From assembly GCA_002367335.1 (NCBI GenBank), contig DFBI01000047.1, positions 1 to 39,264 on the forward strand: DNA of 39,264 nucleotides. The letters are read 5' to 3'. The stretch comes from Syntrophaceae bacterium UBA3084. Its GTDB lineage: Bacteria; Desulfobacterota; Syntrophia; Syntrophales; UBA6807. The first letter of the stretch is position 1; each line of letters begins with the position of its first letter. Under the pieces are notes generated by a model, which was not told the origin of the DNA, ran no database searches, and worked only from the letters and a program-made list of their open reading frames with translations. Of the stretch, positions 329 to 38,878 are shown one piece after another. A program made the translations under genes and the position numbers.

Positions 329-1567
329 TCATCCCCATTTAATTCCCTTGAAAATCACATCCCTCCGAATGTTTCCCTTAAACCTCTCAACCACCCGCAT
401 CATCCCTTCCAACACCTCATCCGTCAAATAATGCGGCTTCACTCCAAGCCCAATCAATCCCTGATAAGTAGGATTATAATAATGTTCTTCTGCCTCTTTT
501 CTTGGATTTTCCAAGTGGTCTATCTTTACCTGATATCCCAGCTTCCTTCCAACATCCTGCACCTTTTCAGCAAGTTCATTGGCACTGAAGGTCTCCATGA
601 TCTGGTTGAAAATACGGAGTTGTCCTTTCTTTGCAGGGGTCTCCGCAGCCTTATGCACGCACTGCAGGGTGTCATTGATATTCAAATACCCCCGGGTTTG
701 ACCTCCTTTTCCATAAACTGTCAACGGGTATCCCACAATGGCCTGAACAATGAAACGGTTTAAAATGGTTCCAAAAATCTCATCGTAATTAAATATCGTC
801 CTCAATTCATGGCTGTCGGCTCTTCCTGCTGTCCGACCTCTGACCTCCGACCTCTGACCACTGATCTCCGACTCATCGGTCTCCAACCCATAAACAGGTC
901 CCTGCATCAGGTCCGTAATCCGCAGATCCCACATGCGCACCCCAAACCACATCAGGTCTGTATCCATGATCTTCGTGGTATGGTAAAGGGAACTTGCCTG
1001 CCTCGGGAAAAGAAAGCGATCTTTCCTTCCTTTATGCTCAATATCAAGCCACCCTTCCTCAATATCAATATTAGGGGTTCCATACTCCCCCATGGTCCCC
1101 ACATGAATCACATGGGTATCTCGTGAGAAATCCCGGAGGGCGAACATCAGGTTATTGGTCACTAAAAGATTGTTCTGGAGCGTGATATTTGCGTATTTAT
1201 AATTGATCAGAGAGTAGGGCGCCGAAGGCTGTTCTGCATAGTGGATAACAGTCTCAGGAATACCGGAAAACTTATGATTGATAGACCATGAGTATTCAAA
1301 ATCGCCCTTGAATAGCGACCTCATTATTTCCGGGTCAGTCAGATCCCCAATCACCACCTTAATCTCTTTTCCCGTCAGTTCATTCCAAATCTTGGCCCGC
1401 TGAATCAAAGAGGGAACAGGATATAGCATTCCCACATCCAATTCCGTGCAGGCATTCCGACGGAAATAGTTGTCCACAACGGTTACATCGTAACCGCGCT
1501 TGGAAAAATACATGGCGGTTGGCCAACCAAGATATCCGTCACCGCCGAGAATCAGAATATGGCTCAC
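329..1567 (-). CDS. sqdB: UDP-sulfoquinovose synthase-like NAD-dependent epimerase/dehydratase (SQD1/SqdB family)
   Basis: 412-aa ORF with a GTG start preceded by AGGGGGG and a GGDGYLGW Rossmann N-terminus. Colinear with SQD1/SqdB as I remember the family (PVYG..TDE, FGT.LNRF.VQA.VG.PLTVYGKGGQTRGYL, NPR.EAEEHYYN blocks). Confidence 0.8.
   Translation of the reverse strand: MSHILILGGDGYLGWPTAMYFSKRGYDVTVVDNYFRRNACTELDVGMLYPVPSLIQRAKIWNELTGKEIKVVIGDLTDPEIMRSLFKGDFEYSWSINHKFSGIPETVIHYAEQPSAPYSLINYKYANITLQNNLLVTNNLMFALRDFSRDTHVIHVGTMGEYGTPNIDIEEGWLDIEHKGRKDRFLFPRQASSLYHTTKIMDTDLMWFGVRMWDLRITDLMQGPVYGLETDESEISGQRSEVRGRTAGRADSHELRTIFNYDEIFGTILNRFIVQAIVGYPLTVYGKGGQTRGYLNINDTLQCVHKAAETPAKKGQLRIFNQIMETFSANELAEKVQDVGRKLGYQVKIDHLENPRKEAEEHYYNPTYQGLIGLGVKPHYLTDEVLEGMMRVVERFKGNIRRDVIFKGIKWG
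812..865. repeat. Heptad-type repeat tract embedded in frame inside the sqdB-like CDS (encodes ISGQRSEVRGRTAGRADS)
   Basis: The + strand reads ...ctgtccg acctctg acctccg acctctg accactg atctccg..., the same CYGAYCT-type units as the 5723-6105 array. It corresponds to 18 extra residues between the conserved TDE and HE(E)LR positions of SQD1-like proteins. Confidence 0.65.
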
Positions 1568-1584: not shown

Positions 1585-1829
1585 CAGATGACAGTGTCCG
1601 GATGACAGTTTTCAGATGACGGATGACAGACTACAGATGACAGACTACAGACTACAGATGACAGACGGCAGATGACAGATGACAGAAAGCAGACTACAGA
1701 TGACAGACTACAGACTACAGATGACAGACTACAGATGACAGACGGCAGATGACAGATGACAGATGACAGAAAGCAGACTAGAGATGACAGACTATAGATG
1801 ACAGACGGCAGATGATAGATGACAGAAAG
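1585..1829. repeat. Tandem heptanucleotide array, 35 units CAGANNN (CAGATGA, CAGACTA, CAGACGG, CAGAAAG)
   Basis: 245 nt in one unbroken 7-nt register. There is a higher-order 8-12-unit pattern, each block ending in CAGAAAG. It fills the leader between the four-helix-bundle stop (1832) and the sqdB-like start (1567). Confidence 0.95.
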
Positions 1830-1831
1830 CA

Positions 1832-2236
1832 TCAAGTGCTTCGGATAGAACCGTTATGGCGTTTGCAAAAGGATTCGGGATTTGCCATCATTTTGCCCAA
1901 CATTCGACCTATTTGCATGCATTTATTCATCAGATGGTTATGATCGTCGGCAGAAACGTACTTGCATGCCAAGGCTGTATCGAGCCAGTGCTGCGTCTCG
2001 GCTTGCTCGCCATCTGAATCTGAAAGTTTGCTGACAAAATGTGCTTGGTAGCGGCGTTTATGCCAGGCTTCGGCCAAATTAGCCCCGATAGAACGTGAAG
2101 ATCTCCGAATCTGATCCGTAAGAGAGAAAAGCTCTTCTTTCGAAAAACCCTTGGTCATTTCAAAAATCTCTTGCTGCAACGAAAATGCAGCCTGGTAAAC
2201 CTTCAAATCTCTAAAACTGCGAATCTTATCACCCAT
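1832..2236 (-). CDS. Four-helix-bundle protein (23S rRNA intervening-sequence protein family)
   Basis: The track ORF is 210 aa, but residues 1-76 are translated heptad array. ATG at 2234-2236 (M77) gives 134 aa with the family pattern F.DL.VYQ.A ... LTDQIRRSSRSIGANLAEA. Confidence 0.8.
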   Translation of the reverse strand: MGDKIRSFRDLKVYQAAFSLQQEIFEMTKGFSKEELFSLTDQIRRSSRSIGANLAEAWHKRRYQAHFVSKLSDSDGEQAETQHWLDTALACKYVSADDHNHLMNKCMQIGRMLGKMMANPESFCKRHNGSIRST

Positions 2237-2238
2237 GA

Positions 2239-2427
2239 CTGTCTTCCGTCCTCCGTCTTCCGCCCTCCGTCTTCCGTCCTCCGTCCTCTGTCTTCCGTCC
2301 TCCGTCCTCCGTCTTCTGTCTTCCGTCCTCCGTCTTCCGCCCTCCGTCTTCCGTCCTCCGTCCTCTGTCTTCCGTCCTCCGTCCTCCGTCTTCTGTATTC
2401 CGTCCTCCGTCCTCCGTCCTCCGCTCT
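2239..2427. repeat. Tandem heptanucleotide array, 27 units CYGTCYT (CCGTCCT, CCGTCTT, CTGTCTT, CCGCCCT)
   Basis: Strict 7-nt register starting 3 nt upstream of the four-helix-bundle ATG. Units 1-11 (2239-2315) are repeated perfectly as units 12-22 (2316-2392). The last unit contributes the stop codon of the CapD-like gene. Confidence 0.95.
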
Positions 2428-3503
2428 CACTCCGGCCAATACCTTTCAGCCGGATGCTCTTCAACCCGTTGCTGCAATAAGTTGTTTTCTCTCAAAAAGA
2501 GTTTCAATTCTGCCTTGCTCATGAAAGGTCCTTCTTCTGAAACATACGGCCGATTAACCGTTGAAGATAAGATATCCGGATAATCATAATCTATGTTTCG
2601 GTAAATCCCGCGAAAAGCAGGAAGGACAACAAAGTACTTTTTCAGCTCCATGGCCCGTCGCGTCTCTTCCTGGCTCATCAATTCCTCATAGAGTTTTTCC
2701 CCTGATTTCCTCCCCATCCCCACAACCTCAATATCTTCCGGTTTATGACCATAGATCGGAGCCAACTCTTCAACCATTACCATGGCCAGATCCGCAATCC
2801 TGATTATCGGCATCTTGGTAACAAAGACTTCACCACCGCGTGCCAGCTCAGCAGAATTGATCACCAGCTCCACCGCCTGCTCAATACTCATGATAAAGCG
2901 TGTCATATCCCTTTCCGTCAGCGTAAGCGGCCCACCTTTTTTTATCTGCTGTTGAAAAATAGGAATAACCGAGCCGCGCGATCCGAGAACATTGCCAAAA
3001 CGGGTTGATATAAAGATCAGCCCTTCACCTTTAAAGTTTGCATTGGCAGCGGTCATAAGTCGTTCGCCCATTAATTTTGATGTACCCATTACATTGGTCG
3101 GATTAACAGCCTTGTCCGAGCTTGTAAATATGACTCTCTCCACATTGTTTTCACAGGCGGCATAGATAATATTCTGAACACCGACAATATTGGTCCGCAC
3201 CGCCTCAAAAGGGGAACGCTCACACAGGATAACATGCTTAAACGCCGCGCAATGAAAAACAATGTCTACCCCTTTCATTTTGCGGCAAAGCTTATCCCTG
3301 TCGCGCACGTCAGCAAGAAAAAAACTGGCCTGCTTGTAATCTGAAAACCTCTGTTCCAAAAAGAAAAGTTCACTCTCATTATTATCAAGAGCTATCAATT
3401 CGGCTGGCTGACAATGCATCAATAACTGGTGCACCAGCTCTCGTCCCACAGTACCACATGCCCCTGTAACAAGTATCCGCTTGTCAGCAAAAAAATCTCT
3501 CAT
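2427..3503 (-). CDS. CapD/PseB/FlaA1-type polysaccharide biosynthesis protein (UDP-GlcNAc 4,6-dehydratase family, short soluble form)
   Basis: 358 aa with a TGACGTVG Rossmann motif and family-typical blocks (VFHCAAFKHV, FTSSDKAVNPTNVMGTSK, RFGNVLGSRGSVIP). Confidence 0.8.
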   Translation of the reverse strand: MRDFFADKRILVTGACGTVGRELVHQLLMHCQPAELIALDNNESELFFLEQRFSDYKQASFFLADVRDRDKLCRKMKGVDIVFHCAAFKHVILCERSPFEAVRTNIVGVQNIIYAACENNVERVIFTSSDKAVNPTNVMGTSKLMGERLMTAANANFKGEGLIFISTRFGNVLGSRGSVIPIFQQQIKKGGPLTLTERDMTRFIMSIEQAVELVINSAELARGGEVFVTKMPIIRIADLAMVMVEELAPIYGHKPEDIEVVGMGRKSGEKLYEELMSQEETRRAMELKKYFVVLPAFRGIYRNIDYDYPDILSSTVNRPYVSEEGPFMSKAELKLFLRENNLLQQRVEEHPAERYWPE

Positions 3504-3534: not shown

Positions 3535-3604
3535 TGCCATCTGCGCTATGCCCCATGCGCTCTGCTCTATACTCTCTGCGCTATGCGCTACGCGTTCTGC
3601 GCTA
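3535..3604. repeat. Tandem heptanucleotide array, 10 units TGCGCTA-type
   Basis: tgccatc tgcgcta tgcccca tgcgctc tgctcta tactctc tgcgcta tgcgcta cgcgttc tgcgcta. Spans the gap between two CDSs and encodes the last residues (LAQNA) and stop codon of the epimerase. Confidence 0.9.
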
Positions 3605-4688
3605 AGAACCACAAAAACGTCTCCTCCAGTCCCTCTTCCAGCCCCCACTTCGGCTCAAACCCCAACATCCTCCTCGCCTTGGAAATATCGGAATAGTTCC
3701 GTTTCACCTCACCCTTCCGTTCGTTCTCATAGACGATCTCGCTTTTTCTCCCCTGATGTTTTTCCGCCAGCCGATTCAAAACCTCTGCCACCTCTCCAAC
3801 CGTATGCTCCCGATGAGTAGCGGTCTGAAATACCTCCCCTCCAATATTCGGCCTTTCCAGGGCCAGCAAAATAGCATCCACCAGATCTTCAATGTAGATA
3901 AAATCCCTTGTCTGGTTCCCGTCACCATAAATGGGCAGCGTCTCCCCAGCCATAATATGCCTGATAAACTTGGCCACCACACTGCCCTTATGGCTCGACC
4001 TCGGCCCATACACGTTCCCAAAACGCAACGCCACAGTCTCAAGACCAAACGACCCGTAGTAAGCCGAGCAATAAGCCTCCCCGCAAAGTTTACTCGCCCC
4101 GTATGGAGATATCGGCCGCGGGACCATCTCCTCATGGATGGGTGGTTCCTGTTCGCCAAGAGGCGCACCCGAAGACGCAAACACAAACCGCTTCGCACCA
4201 TTCTTTCGTGCTGCCTCCAAGAAGTTCACCGTCCCAATGACATTGGCCATGCAGTCTGCCATAGGGTCTTCAATGGACGGCATCACACCTGTATTTGCCG
4301 CAAGATGCACTACAGCATCCATACCACGACAGGCCTTGACCGCCAGGTCCTCATCCCGTATATCTCCCACCACCAGTTCAACTTCAGATGACCGAGGACC
4401 GTGGACAGAAGACGGATCTGCTTTTCTTATTGAATTTTTCGTGGATTGATCTGGTTCTTGTTTATTTGTACATCGGAATTTTGAATTTGTTTCGAGATTC
4501 GGGTTTCGGATTTCGGGTTTGACAGTCTGATCCACTTCACTGAATGTACAGACAGCAGCCAGATCCTCCCTTTTCCCCACCGTGAGATTGTCTATTACTC
4601 TTATTCGGTGTCCATCACCCACATCCATGAGCCGTCTTATGAGGTTAACACCAATAAATCCGCATCCCCCTGTAACCAAAATGTTCAA
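3588..4688 (-). CDS. NAD-dependent epimerase/dehydratase (extended SDR, UDP-hexose 4-epimerase-like) carrying a roughly 48-aa insert
   Basis: 366 aa with a TTG start 9 nt after GGAGG, a GGCGFIG Rossmann motif and the SPYGASK catalytic YxxxK. An insert lies between VIDNL...REDL and VVGDIRD. Confidence 0.8.
   Translation of the reverse strand: MNILVTGGCGFIGVNLIRRLMDVGDGHRIRVIDNLTVGKREDLAAVCTFSEVDQTVKPEIRNPNLETNSKFRCTNKQEPDQSTKNSIRKADPSSVHGPRSSEVELVVGDIRDEDLAVKACRGMDAVVHLAANTGVMPSIEDPMADCMANVIGTVNFLEAARKNGAKRFVFASSGAPLGEQEPPIHEEMVPRPISPYGASKLCGEAYCSAYYGSFGLETVALRFGNVYGPRSSHKGSVVAKFIRHIMAGETLPIYGDGNQTRDFIYIEDLVDAILLALERPNIGGEVFQTATHREHTVGEVAEVLNRLAEKHQGRKSEIVYENERKGEVKRNYSDISKARRMLGFEPKWGLEEGLEETFLWFLAQNA
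4390..4525. repeat. Two heptad tracts inside the epimerase CDS: GACNGNN x4 (4390-4417) and ATTTTGA/TTCGGRT-type (about 4476-4525)
   Basis: gaccgag gaccgtg gacagaa gacggat ... ttcgaga ttcgggt ttcggat ttcgggt ttgacag, separated by an AT-rich spacer. Together they encode the extra loop of the enzyme. Confidence 0.7.
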
Positions 4689-4706: not shown

Positions 4707-4748
4707 TAACTATTAACTGATAACCAATAACGATTAACCAATAACCAA
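4707..4748. repeat. Tandem heptanucleotide array, 6 units TAACNNN (TAACTAT TAACTGA TAACCAA TAACGAT TAACCAA TAACCAA)
   Basis: Read directly. Lies immediately upstream of the epimerase RBS and includes one exact TAACTGA unit. Confidence 0.9.
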
Positions 4749-4753
4749 CAACT

Positions 4754-4868: not shown

Positions 4869-5111
4869 CTACCTACTGCTTGCATTCAAAATCGTTATTC
4901 CTACAATTTTATCATCATCTGTTCTAATTAACACATCGTCATCCATCTCAACGGTCTTCTTTGCTCTTTGTGGCCTTCGAAAACTCAGATACAGAACATC
5001 CGCCTCTTTATCGTAGTCAACCCAAATATGCTTGACCGAAAGCCTTGCCAATTCTGATGATAGCCCTAAGCAAGAATCGATCATTTCCTTATTTACTGAC
5101 TGCATCGCCAT
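4869..5111 (-). CDS. DUF2283-family small protein (putative antitoxin-like partner)
   Basis: 80 aa with the core VDYDKEADVLYLSF typical of DUF2283. Overlaps the upstream small ORF by 19 nt. Confidence 0.6.
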   Translation of the reverse strand: MAMQSVNKEMIDSCLGLSSELARLSVKHIWVDYDKEADVLYLSFRRPQRAKKTVEMDDDVLIRTDDDKIVGITILNASSR

Positions 5112-5395
5112 ATTGGCACCCCCTTTGGTTTTTTATCCAGAAAATAGGCTGTGATGACAAAGCCATCTTTTTTTGAAATTTCTCTGTAAACGACTACCAG
5201 CCATTTATCTCTCCCTATATTCCTCGTCGCCTTCAGACTACCCTTATTGCCTCTGATTATGAATTCCGGGTTTTCAACCACTTCCATGACTTCGAAATAG
5301 TAGCTGGCTAAGTCATCGTGGTTTTCAGTAATATGGAACCATCTTTCATACGTTAAACGTATCGGTACACCATTAACAGAATAGGCTATCTCCAT
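5093..5395 (-). CDS. DUF4258-like small protein (putative toxin-like partner)
   Basis: About 100 aa from ATG 5395 (the track starts at TTG 5413). The pattern H.TE.H...ENP.F......VVVY......VITAYF resembles DUF4258 proteins, which commonly pair with DUF2283. Confidence 0.45.
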   Translation of the reverse strand: MEIAYSVNGVPIRLTYERWFHITENHDDLASYYFEVMEVVENPEFIIRGNKGSLKATRNIGRDKWLVVVYREISKKDGFVITAYFLDKKPKGVPIWRCSQ

Positions 5396-5444
5396 ATTAA
5401 GTTCTCTTCCCAACTTCTCATCTCATCCTCTTCTTTTCCCACCT

Positions 5445-5505: not shown

Positions 5506-5526
5506 TCTGTCCTCTGTCCTCTATTT
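5506..5526. repeat. Short heptad tract TCTGTCC TCTGTCC TCTATTT
   Basis: Read directly. Follows hairpin copy 1. Confidence 0.6.
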
Positions 5527-5540
5527 CTTTTGTTTTTCAT

Positions 5541-5575
5541 TCGACGTTGGACGTTCGACGTTCGATGTTGGACGT
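5541..5575. repeat. Tandem heptanucleotide array, 5 units TYGAYGT (TCGACGT TGGACGT TCGACGT TCGATGT TGGACGT)
   Basis: Read directly, in strict 7-nt register. Confidence 0.9.
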
Positions 5576-5603
5576 TCATCCTTTTTCTTTCCGTCCTCCT
5601 TGT

Positions 5604-5652
5604 CCCGTTGAATTGCTCCGCCAGGAGCACCCCGAAGGGGATTCAACCGGGG
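5604..5652. repeat. Nested hairpin element, copy 2
   Basis: Outer stem CCC-GTTGAAT (5604-5613) pairs with ATTCAAC-c-GGG(G) (5641-5652). Inner hairpins are TGCTCC-gcca-GGAGCA (5614-5629) and CCCC-gaa-GGGG (5630-5640). Confidence 0.75.
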
Positions 5653-5677
5653 TGTCCTCCGCCCTCTGCCCTCCTTG

Positions 5678-5722
5678 CCCCGTGAAATTCACGAAGTGAC
5701 AGCGTAGTGCATTTCACCGGGG
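5678..5722. repeat. Nested hairpin element, copy 3
   Basis: Outer stem CCCC-GTGAAAT (5678-5688) pairs with ATTTCAC-c-GGGG (5711-5722), with two compensatory changes relative to copies 1 and 2. Inner hairpin is TCAC-gaa-GTGA (5689-5699). Confidence 0.75.
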
Positions 5723-6105
5723 TGTCCTCCGTCCTCCGTCTTCCCGACTTCTGATCTCTGATCTCTGATCTCCGATCTCTGATCCCCGTCATCCGACCTC
5801 TGTCCTCTGTCATCTGACATCTGACCTCTGTCTTTTCCGTCCTCCGTCCTCTGTCTTCCGTCCTCCGTCCTCTGTCCTCTGTGTCTTCCGTCCTCCGTCC
5901 TCTGTCCTCCGTCCTCTGTCCTCCGTCCTCTGTCCTCCGTCCTCTGTCCTCCGTCCTCCGTCCTCTGTCATCCGTCCTCTGATCTCCGTCCTCTGTCCTC
6001 CGTCCTCTGATCTCCGATTTCCGTCCTCTGTCCTCCGTCCTCTGTCCTCTGTCATCCGTCCTCTGATCTCCGTCCTCTGTCCTCTGTCCTCTGACCTCCG
6101 TCCTC
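5723..6105. repeat. Large tandem heptanucleotide array, about 54 units YCYGWYM (CCGTCCT, CTGTCCT, CTGATCT, CCGATCT, CTGACCT ...)
   Basis: About 380 nt with 7-nt periodicity and a few 2-nt phase slips (near 5834 and 5880). Ends 6 nt before the stop codon of the intact PGT. It generates the spurious 101-aa RTEDGG ORF at 5810-6115. Confidence 0.95.
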
Positions 6106-6111
6106 TACGCT

Positions 6112-32501: not shown

Positions 32502-33533
32502 TTAGCTTGTGGTTCGTAGTTGGTAACCAATCAGCTCGTCAACTTTGTAATCTCTGTCTGCCTTCCGCCCAATCACCTCATCCCATCGCATTGGACTGAT
32601 GCCTGTTCCGGGCCGCTTTGTGGTCAGATTTTCCTCGGTGAATTCTTCGCCTTCTTTAATGTCTCTTGCTGCCACAATGCTCTTTCGAGCGACGGGTTTG
32701 TTTTTCAGTTCCGAAGGCGACGGCTTTTTTATTTCGCTGCCAAGAGCTTTTTCGATATTGTGGATAGCCCGAACCATGGCTTTGAGTTCATCCGGTTCAA
32801 GAGAGGCTTTGTGATCCGGGCCTTCCATATTCTTGCTCAGAGTGAAATGCTTTTCGATGATCGAAGCTCCCATGGCAACGGCTGCAACAGGGACCTCAAT
32901 GCCTAATGTATGATCAGAATAACCGACTCGAATGCCGGGGGAGGCGGCCTTGATTGTGAGCATAGCCCTTAGATTTACATCCTGCATGGGTGTTGGATAC
33001 TCAGTATTGCAATGCAGGACTGCGATCTTATTAAGCGTAGTTCCAGCAGTAACCAATATATCAAGAGCAGCTTCGATCTCGCCTAAATCCGCCATGCCGG
33101 TGGAAAGAATTATCTCTTTTTTGAGAATGCCGATTTTTCGCAGATAGGGCAGGTTAGTAATCTCGCCTGATGGAATCTTGAAGGTCTCCAACCCCAGATT
33201 GTGCAAGAGGTCGATACTTTCCAGATCAAACGGACTGGAGAGAAACTGTATATCTTTCTGTCTGCAATAGGCGATGAGTTCCCTGTGAGCATCAGCATCC
33301 AGTTCAAGCCTTTTGATCATCTCGTACTGTGATTCGGCTCTGTCAGTAGTCTGTCTCTGATAATCAGCCTTTTGGGCCGACTTGCATACTACTTTGTCCG
33401 CCAAAAACGTCTGGAATTTTACGGCATCTGATCCAGCATCTACGGCAGCATCAATCATTTTTTTAGCCAGCTCCAGGCTTCCATTGTGATTTACGCCTGC
33501 TTCGGCAATGATGAAGGTTCTTTTATAGTTCAT
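32502..33533 (-). CDS. neuB: Nonulosonate (N-acetylneuraminate/legionaminate) synthase, NeuB/LegI family
   Basis: 343 aa with FIIAEAGVNHNGS, KFQTF and the C-terminal SAF/antifreeze-like domain (FTEENLTTKRPGTGISP). Confidence 0.92.
   Translation of the reverse strand: MNYKRTFIIAEAGVNHNGSLELAKKMIDAAVDAGSDAVKFQTFLADKVVCKSAQKADYQRQTTDRAESQYEMIKRLELDADAHRELIAYCRQKDIQFLSSPFDLESIDLLHNLGLETFKIPSGEITNLPYLRKIGILKKEIILSTGMADLGEIEAALDILVTAGTTLNKIAVLHCNTEYPTPMQDVNLRAMLTIKAASPGIRVGYSDHTLGIEVPVAAVAMGASIIEKHFTLSKNMEGPDHKASLEPDELKAMVRAIHNIEKALGSEIKKPSPSELKNKPVARKSIVAARDIKEGEEFTEENLTTKRPGTGISPMRWDEVIGRKADRDYKVDELIGYQLRTTS
32504..32531. repeat. Heptad tract AGCTTGT GGTTCGT AGTTGGT AACCAAT between neuB and neuC
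   Basis: Read directly. The units are related to the 33534-33554 tract. It encodes the last residues (YQLRTTS) of NeuB. Confidence 0.7.
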
Positions 33534-33596
33534 AGCTGGTAGCTCGTAGTTGGTAGCAAAAGAAGTGAAAGCTCAAAGATGAAAGATAGAAGAATT
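33534..33596. repeat. Nine heptads in one register: AGCTGGT AGCTCGT AGTTGGT AGCAAAA GAAGTGA AAGCTCA AAGATGA AAGATAG AAGAATT
   Basis: Read directly. It begins the nucleotide after the neuB start codon and runs into the acetyltransferase CDS, encoding its last residues (SSIFHL) and stop codon. Confidence 0.85.
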
Positions 33597-37905: not shown

Positions 37906-38214
37906 TAGATGCCAGGAATCATCAGCCTTGTCACTCTGCGGTGTCTTGCACCAAGTTAATCCTCGACTTAAACCTGGCGAAAGGAAGAAACTGCCCCACG
38001 GGTTCGAGACCCAAGGCAGGGACCTTCTCTTCCGCTAGAATGGCTGGTTTTACCGATAAAAGAAAGCTTTTCATTTTTTTAACTTTGAACATACAAGGCA
38101 AAATCACCACTGCCCAAAATTCTTTCATCTCCCTTTTCCCATTCTTCCTTCTTTCTCCCCAATAGATTCCTTTTGTTCCCGCCCGCGCTTCGGACCAATC
38201 CACCACCCGATAAA

Positions 38215-38249
38215 GCTCAAAGCTGAATGCTGAATGCTCAAAGCAACTA
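38215..38249. repeat. Heptad tract GCTCAAA GCTGAAT GCTGAAT GCTCAAA GCAACTA
   Basis: Read directly. The last unit contains the stop codon of the four-helix-bundle pseudogene. Confidence 0.8.
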
Positions 38250-38450
38250 AGATGAAGAGATCGAATTTATGAGACCCTTTATCATGGACACTATTTCTTT
38301 ACCATGCATTTCGAGTTGAGAATAACGATCATCAGATATCCATTTCTTTCTCCGGAAAATTTCGAGCAAGGTCATTGTTTCATATAATGACCCCCTTGAT
38401 ATGTACAAATATTGCACAAACTCCTTTTTTGAAAAACGACCTTGCCCTCT
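38247..38450 (-). pseudogene. Four-helix-bundle (23S rRNA IVS protein family) gene, C-terminal half
   Basis: The minus frame reads RGQGRFSKKEFVQYLYISRGSLYETMTLLEIFRRKKWISDDRYSQLEMHGKEIVSMIKGLINSISSS*, matching the family from the (NIAE)GQGR motif onward. It starts directly after the GIY-YIG stop codon. Confidence 0.75.
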
Positions 38451-38705
38451 TTACCCGGTTAAATAAGATTTGAGTCGCTTTTTTAGAAACATTCTGCCAT
38501 GATATGTCTTTAGATATTTTTCACGTCTTGTTGCATCTTCTCTACTAAGACAGGCTTCATAATAGATCAAATTGAAAGGTGCTCTTTTTTTAGTAGAATC
38601 CACAAGGCCCTTGTTATGTCGCTCAAATCTTAACTTGAGTTCTTTTGTGAATCCAATATAGAATTTTCCATCCTTTTGGCTTTGCAAGACATAAGTGTAA
38701 TACAT
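38451..38705 (-). CDS. Small GIY-YIG nuclease-family protein (UPF0213/YhbQ-like)
   Basis: 84 aa from ATG 38705. Shows YYTYVLQSQKDGKFYIGFT (GIY...YIG) plus the R...H.N and E..L motif positions. Confidence 0.85.
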   Translation of the reverse strand: MYYTYVLQSQKDGKFYIGFTKELKLRFERHNKGLVDSTKKRAPFNLIYYEACLSREDATRREKYLKTYHGRMFLKKRLKSYLTG

Positions 38706-38717
38706 CACATATTCAAG

Positions 38718-38878
38718 CTATTTAACTGGGCAGGTATTCATAGATACGCTGGTGGAACTCGCTTCTATTTGCTCCAAGACGCTGTATCTGGGGGACGGAG
38801 TTAGTTTAATAGTTTAATATGTAACGTCCATCATTTTCTTTTATATTTAATACGTTGAAATAATTCATACCGTTCCAT
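38718..38878 (-). pseudogene. Four-helix-bundle gene, decayed N-terminal half
   Basis: One frame reads ...KLTPSPRYSVLEQIEASSTSVSMNT, then leaves homology (CPVK*). Compare FSLTDQIRRSSRSIGANLAEA in the intact copy. Upstream there is an 8-bp tandem duplication (AGTTTAAT x2, 38803-38818) that shifts the frame, and an in-frame TGA. Confidence 0.6.

Follow-up and report, generated by a model that had tools for sequence, protein, structure and literature searches.

The question raised by this locus is why an intact gene of the 23S rRNA intervening sequence (IVS) protein family should lie, almost without spacer, between two inverted arrays of heptanucleotides in a polysaccharide operon. The locus belongs to a 39,264-nt stretch of the genome of Syntrophaceae bacterium UBA3084 (GCA_002367335.1, contig DFBI01000047.1), which in its whole length is referred to here as the window, and the gene encodes a four-helix-bundle (4HB) protein. 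We hold, with middling confidence, that positions 1585-2423 represent one IVS-type insertion module in the spacer of a polysaccharide operon, the arms of which would pair with each other and be processed by RNase III.

Anatomy of the cassette

The module and its two host genes are arranged as follows.

2427..3503, minus strand: upstream host gene, capD-like (PF02719, Polysacc_synt_2)
2239..2423, minus strand: upstream (5′) arm, array B, about 26 heptads reading CGGAGGA, CGGAAGA, CAGAGGA, CAGAAGA and CGGAGGG on the coding strand
2239..2392, minus strand: exact 77-bp tandem duplication (11 units) within array B, 2239-2315 and 2316-2392 being identical strings
1832..2236, minus strand: intact 4HB gene, 134 amino acids, PF05635/TIGR02436, also known as S23p or the 23S rRNA-IVS protein
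1585..1829, minus strand: downstream (3′) arm, array A, about 35 heptads reading TCATCTG, TAGTCTG, CCGTCTG and CTTTCTG on the coding strand
329..1567, minus strand: downstream host gene, sqdB-like NAD-dependent epimerase/dehydratase

Since all genes of the window are on the minus strand, the order of transcription is capD, purine-rich arm, 4HB gene, pyrimidine-rich arm and sqdB. On the plus strand array A consists of nnnCAGA units, in which nnn is TGA, CTA, CGG or AAG, and read on the coding strand it is the reverse complement of these; the purine-rich strand is thus the plus strand in array A and the minus strand in array B. The original prediction had described an intact 4HB gene nested between inverted heptad arrays, and its coordinates, family matches and strand flip were all reproduced. 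Array A lies 2 nt from the stop codon (1832-1834), as predicted, and the gap between the ATG (2234-2236) and array B is likewise 2 nt rather than the 3 nt first given, an immaterial correction. Array B occupies the entire spacer between the capD-like stop codon (2427-2429) and the 4HB ATG, and supplies a GGAGG-like ribosome-binding sequence, while array A is separated from the sqdB-like start codon by 17 nt. Window units such as TGACAGA, GGACGGA and AGACGGA are of the type referred to below as GACRGA.

Tandem Repeats Finder (TRF) describes array A as having period 7 with 34.6 copies and a score of 195; superimposed on this is a higher-order period of 63 bp with 3.4 copies and 87% match. As predicted, three blocks are each closed by the unit AAGCAGA/CAGAAAG. 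In 30 dinucleotide-preserving shuffles of the window, a mean of 1.2 weak rows whose period was divisible by 7 was found and the top score was 42, compared with 195-346 for the real arrays. The upstream arm is of the form A/G-GAC-GGA and the downstream arm T-GAC-AGA, differing at one position per heptad, which implies that each arm expanded separately from different founder units; both the 63-bp blocks and the 77-bp duplication are consistent with this. About 5-7 units are present in related loci where the window has about 35, and close relatives span 3 to 35 units with the gene retained. The arms accordingly turn over fast through local duplication, and the recent expansion that had been proposed from the exact 77-bp duplication gains from the comparison with related loci. 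Array-length polymorphism at 4HB flanks was not seen among samples of one population (L168-L173).

Association between 4HB genes and short-period arrays

The association was assessed in three samples. The first comprised 79 loci with relatives of the 4HB protein (47-88% identity, one genome per species), labelled WOR-3, Fermentibacteria, Desulfobacterota, Planctomycetota, Verrucomicrobiota, Lentisphaerota, Gemmatimonadota and others; most are metagenome-assembled genomes (MAGs), the taxon labels of which may err. Arrays were called by TRF and 4HB genes by a hidden Markov model built from the locus proteins, and an array was counted if it lay within 60 bp of a full-length 4HB gene. The remaining open reading frames (ORFs) of at least 100 amino acids in the same loci served as comparison, the gene calls being crude (longest ORFs). 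TRF was preferred to a detector that demanded 80% or more self-match over 28 nt, which proved too stringent for units with two to three variable positions; at score 30 TRF misses degenerate arms and admits some noise. A period-7 array was found upstream of 48 of 75 4HB genes (64%; other ORFs 10%) and downstream of 47 of 76 (62%; other ORFs 13%), and arrays flanked both sides of 32/75 (43%) compared with 2% of other ORFs. The enrichment is 6-fold for a single side and approximately 20-fold for both sides. Several 20-kb loci (L030, L036, L078 and L049) contain just two or three arrays, and these flank the 4HB gene.

The second sample, 80 metagenome loci, was picked by the sqdB-like neighbour (57-81% identity) and was blind to the 4HB gene. 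Six of these loci carry seven 4HB genes, all of which have an array within 150 nt, and arrays amount to 22 bp/kb in these six, as opposed to 2.9 bp/kb in the remaining 74. The third sample consisted of annotated plasmids from two tblastn searches (27 and 28 records, nearly all cyanobacterial). Every one of the 14 plasmid copies that were inspected, from four phyla, adjoins short-period arrays, as an inverted pair in 11, as direct flanks in two and with an array on the downstream side only in one; they derive from Nostoc, Leptolyngbya, Oscillatoria, Calothrix, Pseudanabaena, Geminocystis, Stanieria, Anabaena, Picosynechococcus, Riemerella, Azospirillum and Gemmatirosa. In four whole plasmids three 4HB genes lie directly within an inverted pair and the fourth is accompanied by a remnant only.

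The null hypothesis that spacers are simply full of heptads is rejected, since three independent samples contradict it. The link between 4HB gene and arrays is not due to chance, and the association check that accompanied the original prediction comes out in its favour both for two-sided flanks and for the plasmid copies. Sequence comparison across these samples shows the gene-plus-arms build to be conserved across phyla.

Insertion at the capD-sqdB junction

The order capD-then-sqdB is conserved in relatives, and among the 80 sqdB-like relatives the spacer between the two genes is usually 15-100 nt long and free of arrays. Examples of array-free spacers are listed here.

L092: 15 nt
L088: 17 nt
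L093: 22 nt
L090: 64 nt

In the window, L001 and L154 the spacer holds the same 4HB subfamily, while L136 and L091 hold two other subfamilies, each with a unit of its own. Within the 80-locus set, L154, L136 and L091 are the loci with a 4HB gene in this spacer, and arrays are present in all three; relatives carrying the gene at the same site without arrays, which had been named as evidence that would speak against the prediction, were absent. L087 and L089 have spacers with arrays only. The contrast between arrays and 4HB presence in the spacer is significant (Fisher p ~ 3e-4). The cassette is bounded by the capD stop codon and the sqdB ribosome-binding site, and no target duplication was seen in comparison with the empty junctions of L088, L092 and L093. 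Comparison with relatives shows the module to be an insertion relative to most orthologous capD-sqdB junctions, as the predicted insertion between two sugar-nucleotide genes required. An insertion sequence or miniature inverted-repeat transposable element (MITE) was considered and rejected, as the module has neither transposase nor target-site duplication and its arms are tandem arrays of variable length.

The same build in a 23S rRNA intervening sequence

In Coxiella, the IVS carries AGAAGA, then three GACAGAT and one GACAGAA ahead of the S23p ATG; the heptad copy number varies among strains, the terminal stem is 28 bp and RNase III cleaves at the first heptad (PMC4990558). A direct counterpart was encountered on the Azospirillum lipoferum plasmid AZO_p2, where the 4HB tblastn match has no annotated coding sequence. 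The 4HB ORF (L182 3318-3749) lies within a complete 23S rRNA gene (Rfam LSU model, L182 2184-5382, 2692 bits). Its flanks, TCAGAGGACGGATGACAGAGGACGGAGGACAGAAAGG and CTATCCGTCCTCTGTCTTCTGTCATCCGTCTTCTGA, form a folded stem of about 35 bp. The arms of this IVS (L182 3337-3373 and 3770-3805) are GACRGA heptads as in the window. By match to the rRNA model and to the window units, the gene-plus-arms build with the GACRGA unit is thus shown to occur in a true 23S IVS, and since the heptads are the same, the window element has the build of an IVS outside rRNA. The window shares with IVSs a PF05635 ORF within terminal inverted repeats that pair in the predicted fold, as well as arms of GACRGA-type heptads. 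Its element occupies neither helix 25 nor helix 45 of 23S rRNA, and Rfam found no rRNA or other family at gathering score in the window.

Orientation and unit types of the arms

In coding orientation the upstream arm runs as (n-GAC-R-GA)n up to the ATG, and the downstream arm follows right after the stop codon as its reverse complement. Judged by shared 6-mers, flanks are inverted in 57 loci and direct in 15. Polarity was counted for 86 GACRGA-type arrays between co-directional genes: 35 sense arrays precede a 4HB gene, 28 antisense arrays follow one, four are exceptions and 19 are not beside a 4HB gene. The sense-before/antisense-after rule is hence obeyed by 63 of 67 4HB-adjacent arrays, and the G-rich strand points 5′ to 3′ at the 4HB gene from either side. 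Distant 4HB paralogues have other arms.

L002: AGGAGTG with CACTCCT
L136: TTAGTGA with TCACAAA
L091: CGAAATC with GATTTCG
Anabaena: GGTGACA with TGTCACC
Riemerella: AGGTTYA with TRAACCT
Nostoc: GCAGGGGA with TCCCCTGC, period 8

As these paralogues have other units in the identical arrangement, the arm unit is lineage-specific; its period is 7 and at times 8-9. Inverted array pairs without an ORF also occur, with loops of 55-235 bp (L183 9589-9721; L186 3015-3226, 4889-5075 and 16896-17195), and a further such pair lies just downstream of the 4HB gene in L014. On cyanobacterial plasmids their unit is that of the 4HB arms on the same replicon. By analogy, these pairs resemble ORF-less IVSs or non-autonomous copies, in the relation that MITEs or REPINs (paired repetitive extragenic palindromes, REPs) have to their autonomous elements.

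The 4HB protein

The window protein matches PF05635 over residues 9-114 of 134 (E = 1.3e-32, 112.6 bits, cut-off 33.8) and TIGR02436 with 103 bits (cut-off 24), and the family motif RxxxSxxxNxxE is present as QIRRSSRSIGANLAEA. Relatives of solved structure, identified by sequence similarity, are 2rld (E = 2e-9) and 2gsc (E = 8e-5), with five chains per PDB entry. An exact look-up of the window protein gave no record; the nearest loci are found in MAGs labelled WOR-3 and Fermentibacteria and on a 699-bp contig of GCA_001263465.1. The ratio of nonsynonymous to synonymous substitution (dN/dS) of the window gene is 0.07-0.16 in comparisons with L001, L002, L003 and L154, from which it follows that the protein is in use; substitution ratios of this order show that it has been kept by purifying selection. 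Synonymous divergence (dS) is 0.5-0.9 for the 4HB gene and saturated for the adjacent sqdB gene (nucleotide identity 62-76%), and a 96%-identical 4HB copy is found in another upstream context, again with arrays on both sides. These two observations suggest that the 4HB cassette has been exchanged more recently than the host genes diverged.

The module includes neither a recombinase nor a transposase nor a reverse transcriptase, and the PADLOC defence models gave no match at E <= 0.01. Avd, the accessory protein of diversity-generating retroelements, is a basic pentamer that binds nucleic acid. It is more speculative that the 4HB protein, as a homologue of this pentamer, might bind the nucleic acid of the arms.

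Transcript folding and proposed mechanism

In the predicted fold of the minus-strand RNA 1575-2435, the whole of array B pairs with the whole of array A around the ORF, with an energy of -355.9 kcal/mol compared with -275.4 +/- 9.2 for shuffles (z = -8.8). Across loci the mean duplex energy of the 70-nt flanks is -43 kcal/mol, that of shuffled partners -31 and that of other-gene flanks -28. The sense RNA of the window pairs far better than the antisense RNA (-65.7 vs -41.2 kcal/mol), since G-U pairs are used. In 50 of 67 cases the 4HB gene points the same way as both of its neighbours, the median gaps being 100-120 nt, and a simple scan found no promoter-like or terminator-like site within 1570-2440 on the minus strand, window totals being at shuffle level. 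From the fold, the co-direction and the lack of internal promoter-like or terminator-like sites we infer co-transcription, a long stem and cleavage by RNase III.

The module would be transcribed together with the operon, and its purine-rich 5′ arm would base-pair with the pyrimidine-rich 3′ arm to give an imperfect stem, approximately 180 nt per arm, around the ORF. In the modelled structure, the stem would bury the GGAGG-rich leader and ribosome-binding site of the 4HB gene, and translation of the 4HB protein might be limited to the interval before the 3′ arm is synthesized. RNase III may cut the double-stranded arm RNA as it does in rRNA IVSs, and by the same analogy cleavage would free the cassette RNA and separate the flanking messages. 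The arms would lengthen and shorten by replication slippage or unequal exchange, each independently of the other, which would explain why the unit make-up of the two window arms differs. The simplest possibility for the spread of the module would be homologous exchange through the arms.

Several observations weigh against an IVS-type module with pairing arms. GACRGA-type arrays also occur without an adjoining 4HB gene (299 of 422 arrays in the loci, in addition to window 5506-6106), and the direct flanks in about one fifth of the loci (L154, L082 and L085 among them) are unable to form a stem. Cognate arms barely beat non-cognate arms (-43 vs -37 kcal/mol), unit composition is only weakly correlated between the two arms (r = 0.2-0.55, n = 18), and the window arms mismatch at one position of each heptad. 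A general excess of sense-strand G-U pairing was not seen across loci, the sense strand being more stable in 41 of 73. Furthermore, the constant polarity could simply reflect common ancestry and not selection, and the stem model leaves the unit length of 7, sometimes 8-9, unexplained.

Alternative explanations

If arrays came first, 4HB genes may have homed into pre-existing spacer arrays or ORF-less pairs, or been captured there by same-unit exchange. The array-only spacers of L087 and L089 and the many arrays distant from any 4HB gene are in line with such an order of events, as are the ORF-less inverted pairs with the gene-flank unit and loops of 55-235 bp on cyanobacterial plasmids, in L014 and in L003, and direct flanks (L154, L085 and L082) are expected from insertion into one array. 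However, most empty spacers are array-free, the array-only spacers can equally be read as scars of deletion between direct arms, and in the array-poor 20-kb loci (L030, L036, L078 and L049) the two or three arrays present are those that flank the gene. The three 4HB subfamilies in the capD-sqdB spacer, each with its own unit (GACRGA, TTAGTGA and CGAAATC), are also more simply explained if gene and arms arrive jointly, and we regard capture by older arrays as unlikely. Another possibility is that the 4HB protein itself makes or maintains the arrays, recognizing its own unit and promoting templated or slipped synthesis in cis and in trans, in the manner of REP-associated tyrosine transposases (RAYTs). 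The pairing of a unit type with each 4HB subfamily over many loci would fit, but is also expected from plain linkage. Further points in favour are the same-unit ORF-less inverted pairs dispersed on the same replicons, the approximately eightfold higher array density in loci with a 4HB gene, the purifying selection on the protein, its homology to Avd, a partner of reverse transcriptase, and the G-rich strand running 5′ to 3′ towards the gene from both sides, as would be expected if units were added at a 3′ end. Yet the helical protein of 134 amino acids has no catalytic motif, the module contains no polymerase or reverse transcriptase, and across its 39 kb the window has six or more unit types but only a single intact 4HB gene and a broken one. 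We consider such a role in array synthesis quite unlikely. Its widest form, in which PF05635 proteins would be the missing agent behind heptanucleotide arrays such as the short tandemly repeated repetitive (STRR) sequences and the Xanthomonas GGGAATC repeats, each lineage adding or maintaining its own 7-9-nt unit, is decidedly doubtful. If true, it would divide the elements into autonomous copies, in which the gene lies between two arms and among which the rRNA IVS would count, and non-autonomous pairs lacking an ORF, comparable to RAYTs and REPINs, and the polarity would record unit addition at a 3′ end, possibly by a polymerase or reverse transcriptase that is recruited, as in the case of Avd.

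A regulatory role, with the arrays as operator-like sites and the 4HB protein as a small DNA-binding regulator or insulator of itself and its neighbours, would suit arrays that abut start and stop codons, units that vary by subfamily and cassettes that lie within polysaccharide and cas operons. It appears very unlikely to us, as no DNA-binding domain is recognized, the number of units ranges from 3 to 35 among close relatives in which the gene is never lost, and the identical build occurs inside rRNA, a setting in which controlling the transcription of neighbours would be meaningless. That a short gene simply has two spacers near it in a genome rich in slippage heptads draws on the unrelated heptad arrays in other spacers at 1-6.1 kb (3542-3604, 4707-4752 and 5540-5577), but coincidence of this kind is scarcely credible in view of the 6-fold and approximately 20-fold enrichments, the orientation rule in 63/67 arrays, the arrays at 14/14 plasmid copies in four phyla and the empty-site contrast (p ~ 3e-4). 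We give practically no credence to the 4HB gene being the Avd component of a diversity-generating retroelement: the matches to bAvd PF22296 (32.6 bits) and to the Avd model of NCBIfam, NF033474 (35.3 bits), are weak and under the curated cut-offs of 40 and 80, respectively, the neighbours are capD-like and sqdB-like genes, and there is no adjacent reverse transcriptase or pair of template and variable repeats.

Other 4HB genes, arrays and repeats in the window

The window holds a second 4HB gene, and a long array without one.

38262..38819, minus strand: second 4HB gene, in two fragments, N-terminal at 38733-38819 and C-terminal at 38262-38435
38451..38708, minus strand: GIY-YIG ORF between the two fragments (PF01541, E = 1e-15)
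38212..38244, minus strand: heptad tract of GCTTTGA/GCATTCA type directly past the stop codon of the second, decayed 4HB gene
5506..6106, minus strand: GACRGA-family array of about 600 bp in sense orientation, upstream of a DUF4258-like/DUF2283 pair, without adjacent 4HB gene

The C-terminal fragment matches TIGR02436 (E = 5.8e-10) and the N-terminal fragment is in the same frame, in agreement with the predicted decayed gene abutting a heptad tract. The GIY-YIG ORF is in frame with both fragments and placed at the conserved NIAEG motif; it looks like a homing-type nuclease gene inserted into the second 4HB gene.

Further heptad arrays were called by TRF at 832-872, 3542-3604, 4489-4520, 4707-4752, 5506-6106 and 33533-33593. 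The arrays cluster in the first 6 kb of the window and are almost absent at 7-33 kb. Those at 3542-3604, 4707-4752, 5540-5577 and 33533-33593 are intergenic, without adjacent 4HB gene, and consist of TGCGCTA, TAACYNN (including TAACTGA), TTCGACG and TAGCTGG units. Two arrays lie within coding sequence. The GGTCRGA-type array at 832-872 is in frame inside the sqdB-like gene and adds approximately 17 amino acids; the gene is 1236 nt (412 codons) long here, most orthologues match over 1137-1188 nt, and L086 has a GACGGAG array at the sqdB site matching window 832-872. The CGAAATC-type array at 4489-4520 is in frame in a second epimerase (ORF 3588-4688), within an extra segment of about 55 amino acids, and its unit also forms the arms of the distant 4HB gene in L091. 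Repeat-derived insertions in coding genes were likewise observed in L002 and L047.

The DUF4258-like (weak match)/DUF2283 pair at 4869-5413, beside the 5506-6106 array, is probably a toxin-antitoxin pair. It recurs with 81-85% identity between capD and the 4HB gene in L154 and lies beside arrays in L003, and this recurrence beside GACRGA arrays indicates that other small cassettes share these arrays. A hairpin motif, CCCCGGTTGAAT ... ATTCAAC(C/T)GGGG, is found beside heptad arrays in the window (~205-250) and in the two closest loci, with sites upstream of the 4HB gene in L001 and at 446-1021 and 1846-2794 in L168, and may be a separate small repeat element.

Implications

Two old puzzles merge at this locus, the nature and persistence of rRNA IVS/S23p elements and the abundance of heptanucleotide arrays in some bacteria. 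Should the build be general, for which the 79 loci, the 80 control loci and the 14 plasmid copies speak, the rRNA IVS would be the best-known site of a wider cassette family that is also found in polysaccharide and cas operons. 4HB genes within cas loci have been interpreted as Cas-associated (PMC3936711), and 4HB ORFs have been described in rRNA insertions of Candidate Phyla Radiation (CPR) bacteria (bioRxiv 2024.02.27.582315). On cyanobacterial plasmids we observed 4HB genes with their own arrays in the orders cas6-4HB-cas4 (L085 and L177) and cmr2-4HB-cmr3 (L178). Culturable carriers of 4HB genes include Anabaena sp. 90 (pANA02, with the order cas6-4HB-cas4), Nostoc punctiforme (pNPUN02, NPUN_RS36250) and Azospirillum lipoferum 4B. 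With a general build, the Cas-associated label may reflect insertion into an operon rather than function, and the arms would constitute a natural module that may cut operon transcripts.

Contigs with close 4HB homologues are mostly 0.5-3 kb long, and L167 ends within one array, while its other array is interrupted by a stretch of N. As assemblies tend to break at tandem repeats, the arms of a generally distributed cassette would plausibly explain such short contigs; the arms probably break short-read assemblies, leaving the cassette family under-assembled in metagenomes.

Comparison with known systems

The full-text literature, with most subscription journals outside the coverage, gave no paper presenting inverted 7-9-nt arrays as a general bracket of PF05635 genes and none calling the IVS stem a short form of heptad arrays; in the same scope the Coxiella IVS note is the only one to touch on the link. 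The IVS with S23p ORF and terminal stem and the heptamers upstream of the Coxiella ORF were known already, and within that coverage the family-wide link to heptad arrays would be new.

Among known systems the heptanucleotide repeats resemble the arms themselves. STRR heptanucleotides were first described in Calothrix; Nostoc and Xanthomonas show an unexplained excess of heptamers, many of them in convergent pairs (PMC4692102), and TAACTGA repeats are known from Beggiatoaceae (PMC4679880). Like the window arms, the STRR, Xanthomonas GGGAATC and Beggiatoaceae TAACTGA repeats are intergenic tandem heptamers with lineage-specific units and frequent inverted pairs, and they are reported to change rapidly in length and to have no known origin or function (PMC4692102, PMC4679880). 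The plasmid 4HB matches fall almost entirely in Nostoc, Calothrix and related cyanobacteria. In contrast to these two reports, in which a search for 4HB/S23 terms found no mention of a linked gene, a specific gene family lies between the arms here, and some arms have a period of 8 or 9 nt.

The REP/REPIN and RAYT system resembles the cassette in that a gene lies within inverted short repeats that are also dispersed as gene-less inverted pairs. RAYT, however, is an HUH/Y1 transposase and REPs are single palindromes of 20-35 nt, whereas the cassette gene encodes a small helical protein without HUH/Y1 motifs, and the repeats are tandem arrays of 7-9-nt units; with PF05635 as the enclosed gene and no match to a transposase family, the cassette was not assigned to this system. 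Avd belongs to a four-helix-bundle fold family homologous to the window protein, but Avd systems contain a reverse transcriptase and template/variable repeats, and the cassette has neither.

The closest likeness in build is to the 23S rRNA IVS of Leptospira, Coxiella, Brucella and alphaproteobacteria, in which a PF05635 ORF likewise lies inside stem-forming inverted repeats without a transposase, and which is regarded as selfish. While these IVSs occupy helix 25 or 45, the window cassette stands between two protein genes of an operon, and its arms of 26-35 units (183-245 bp) are 5-7 times longer than the 4-5 units (28-35 bp) of the IVS. The window ORF is intact and its substitution pattern indicates purifying selection; for the Coxiella ORF, in contrast, decay and a lack of translation are reported.

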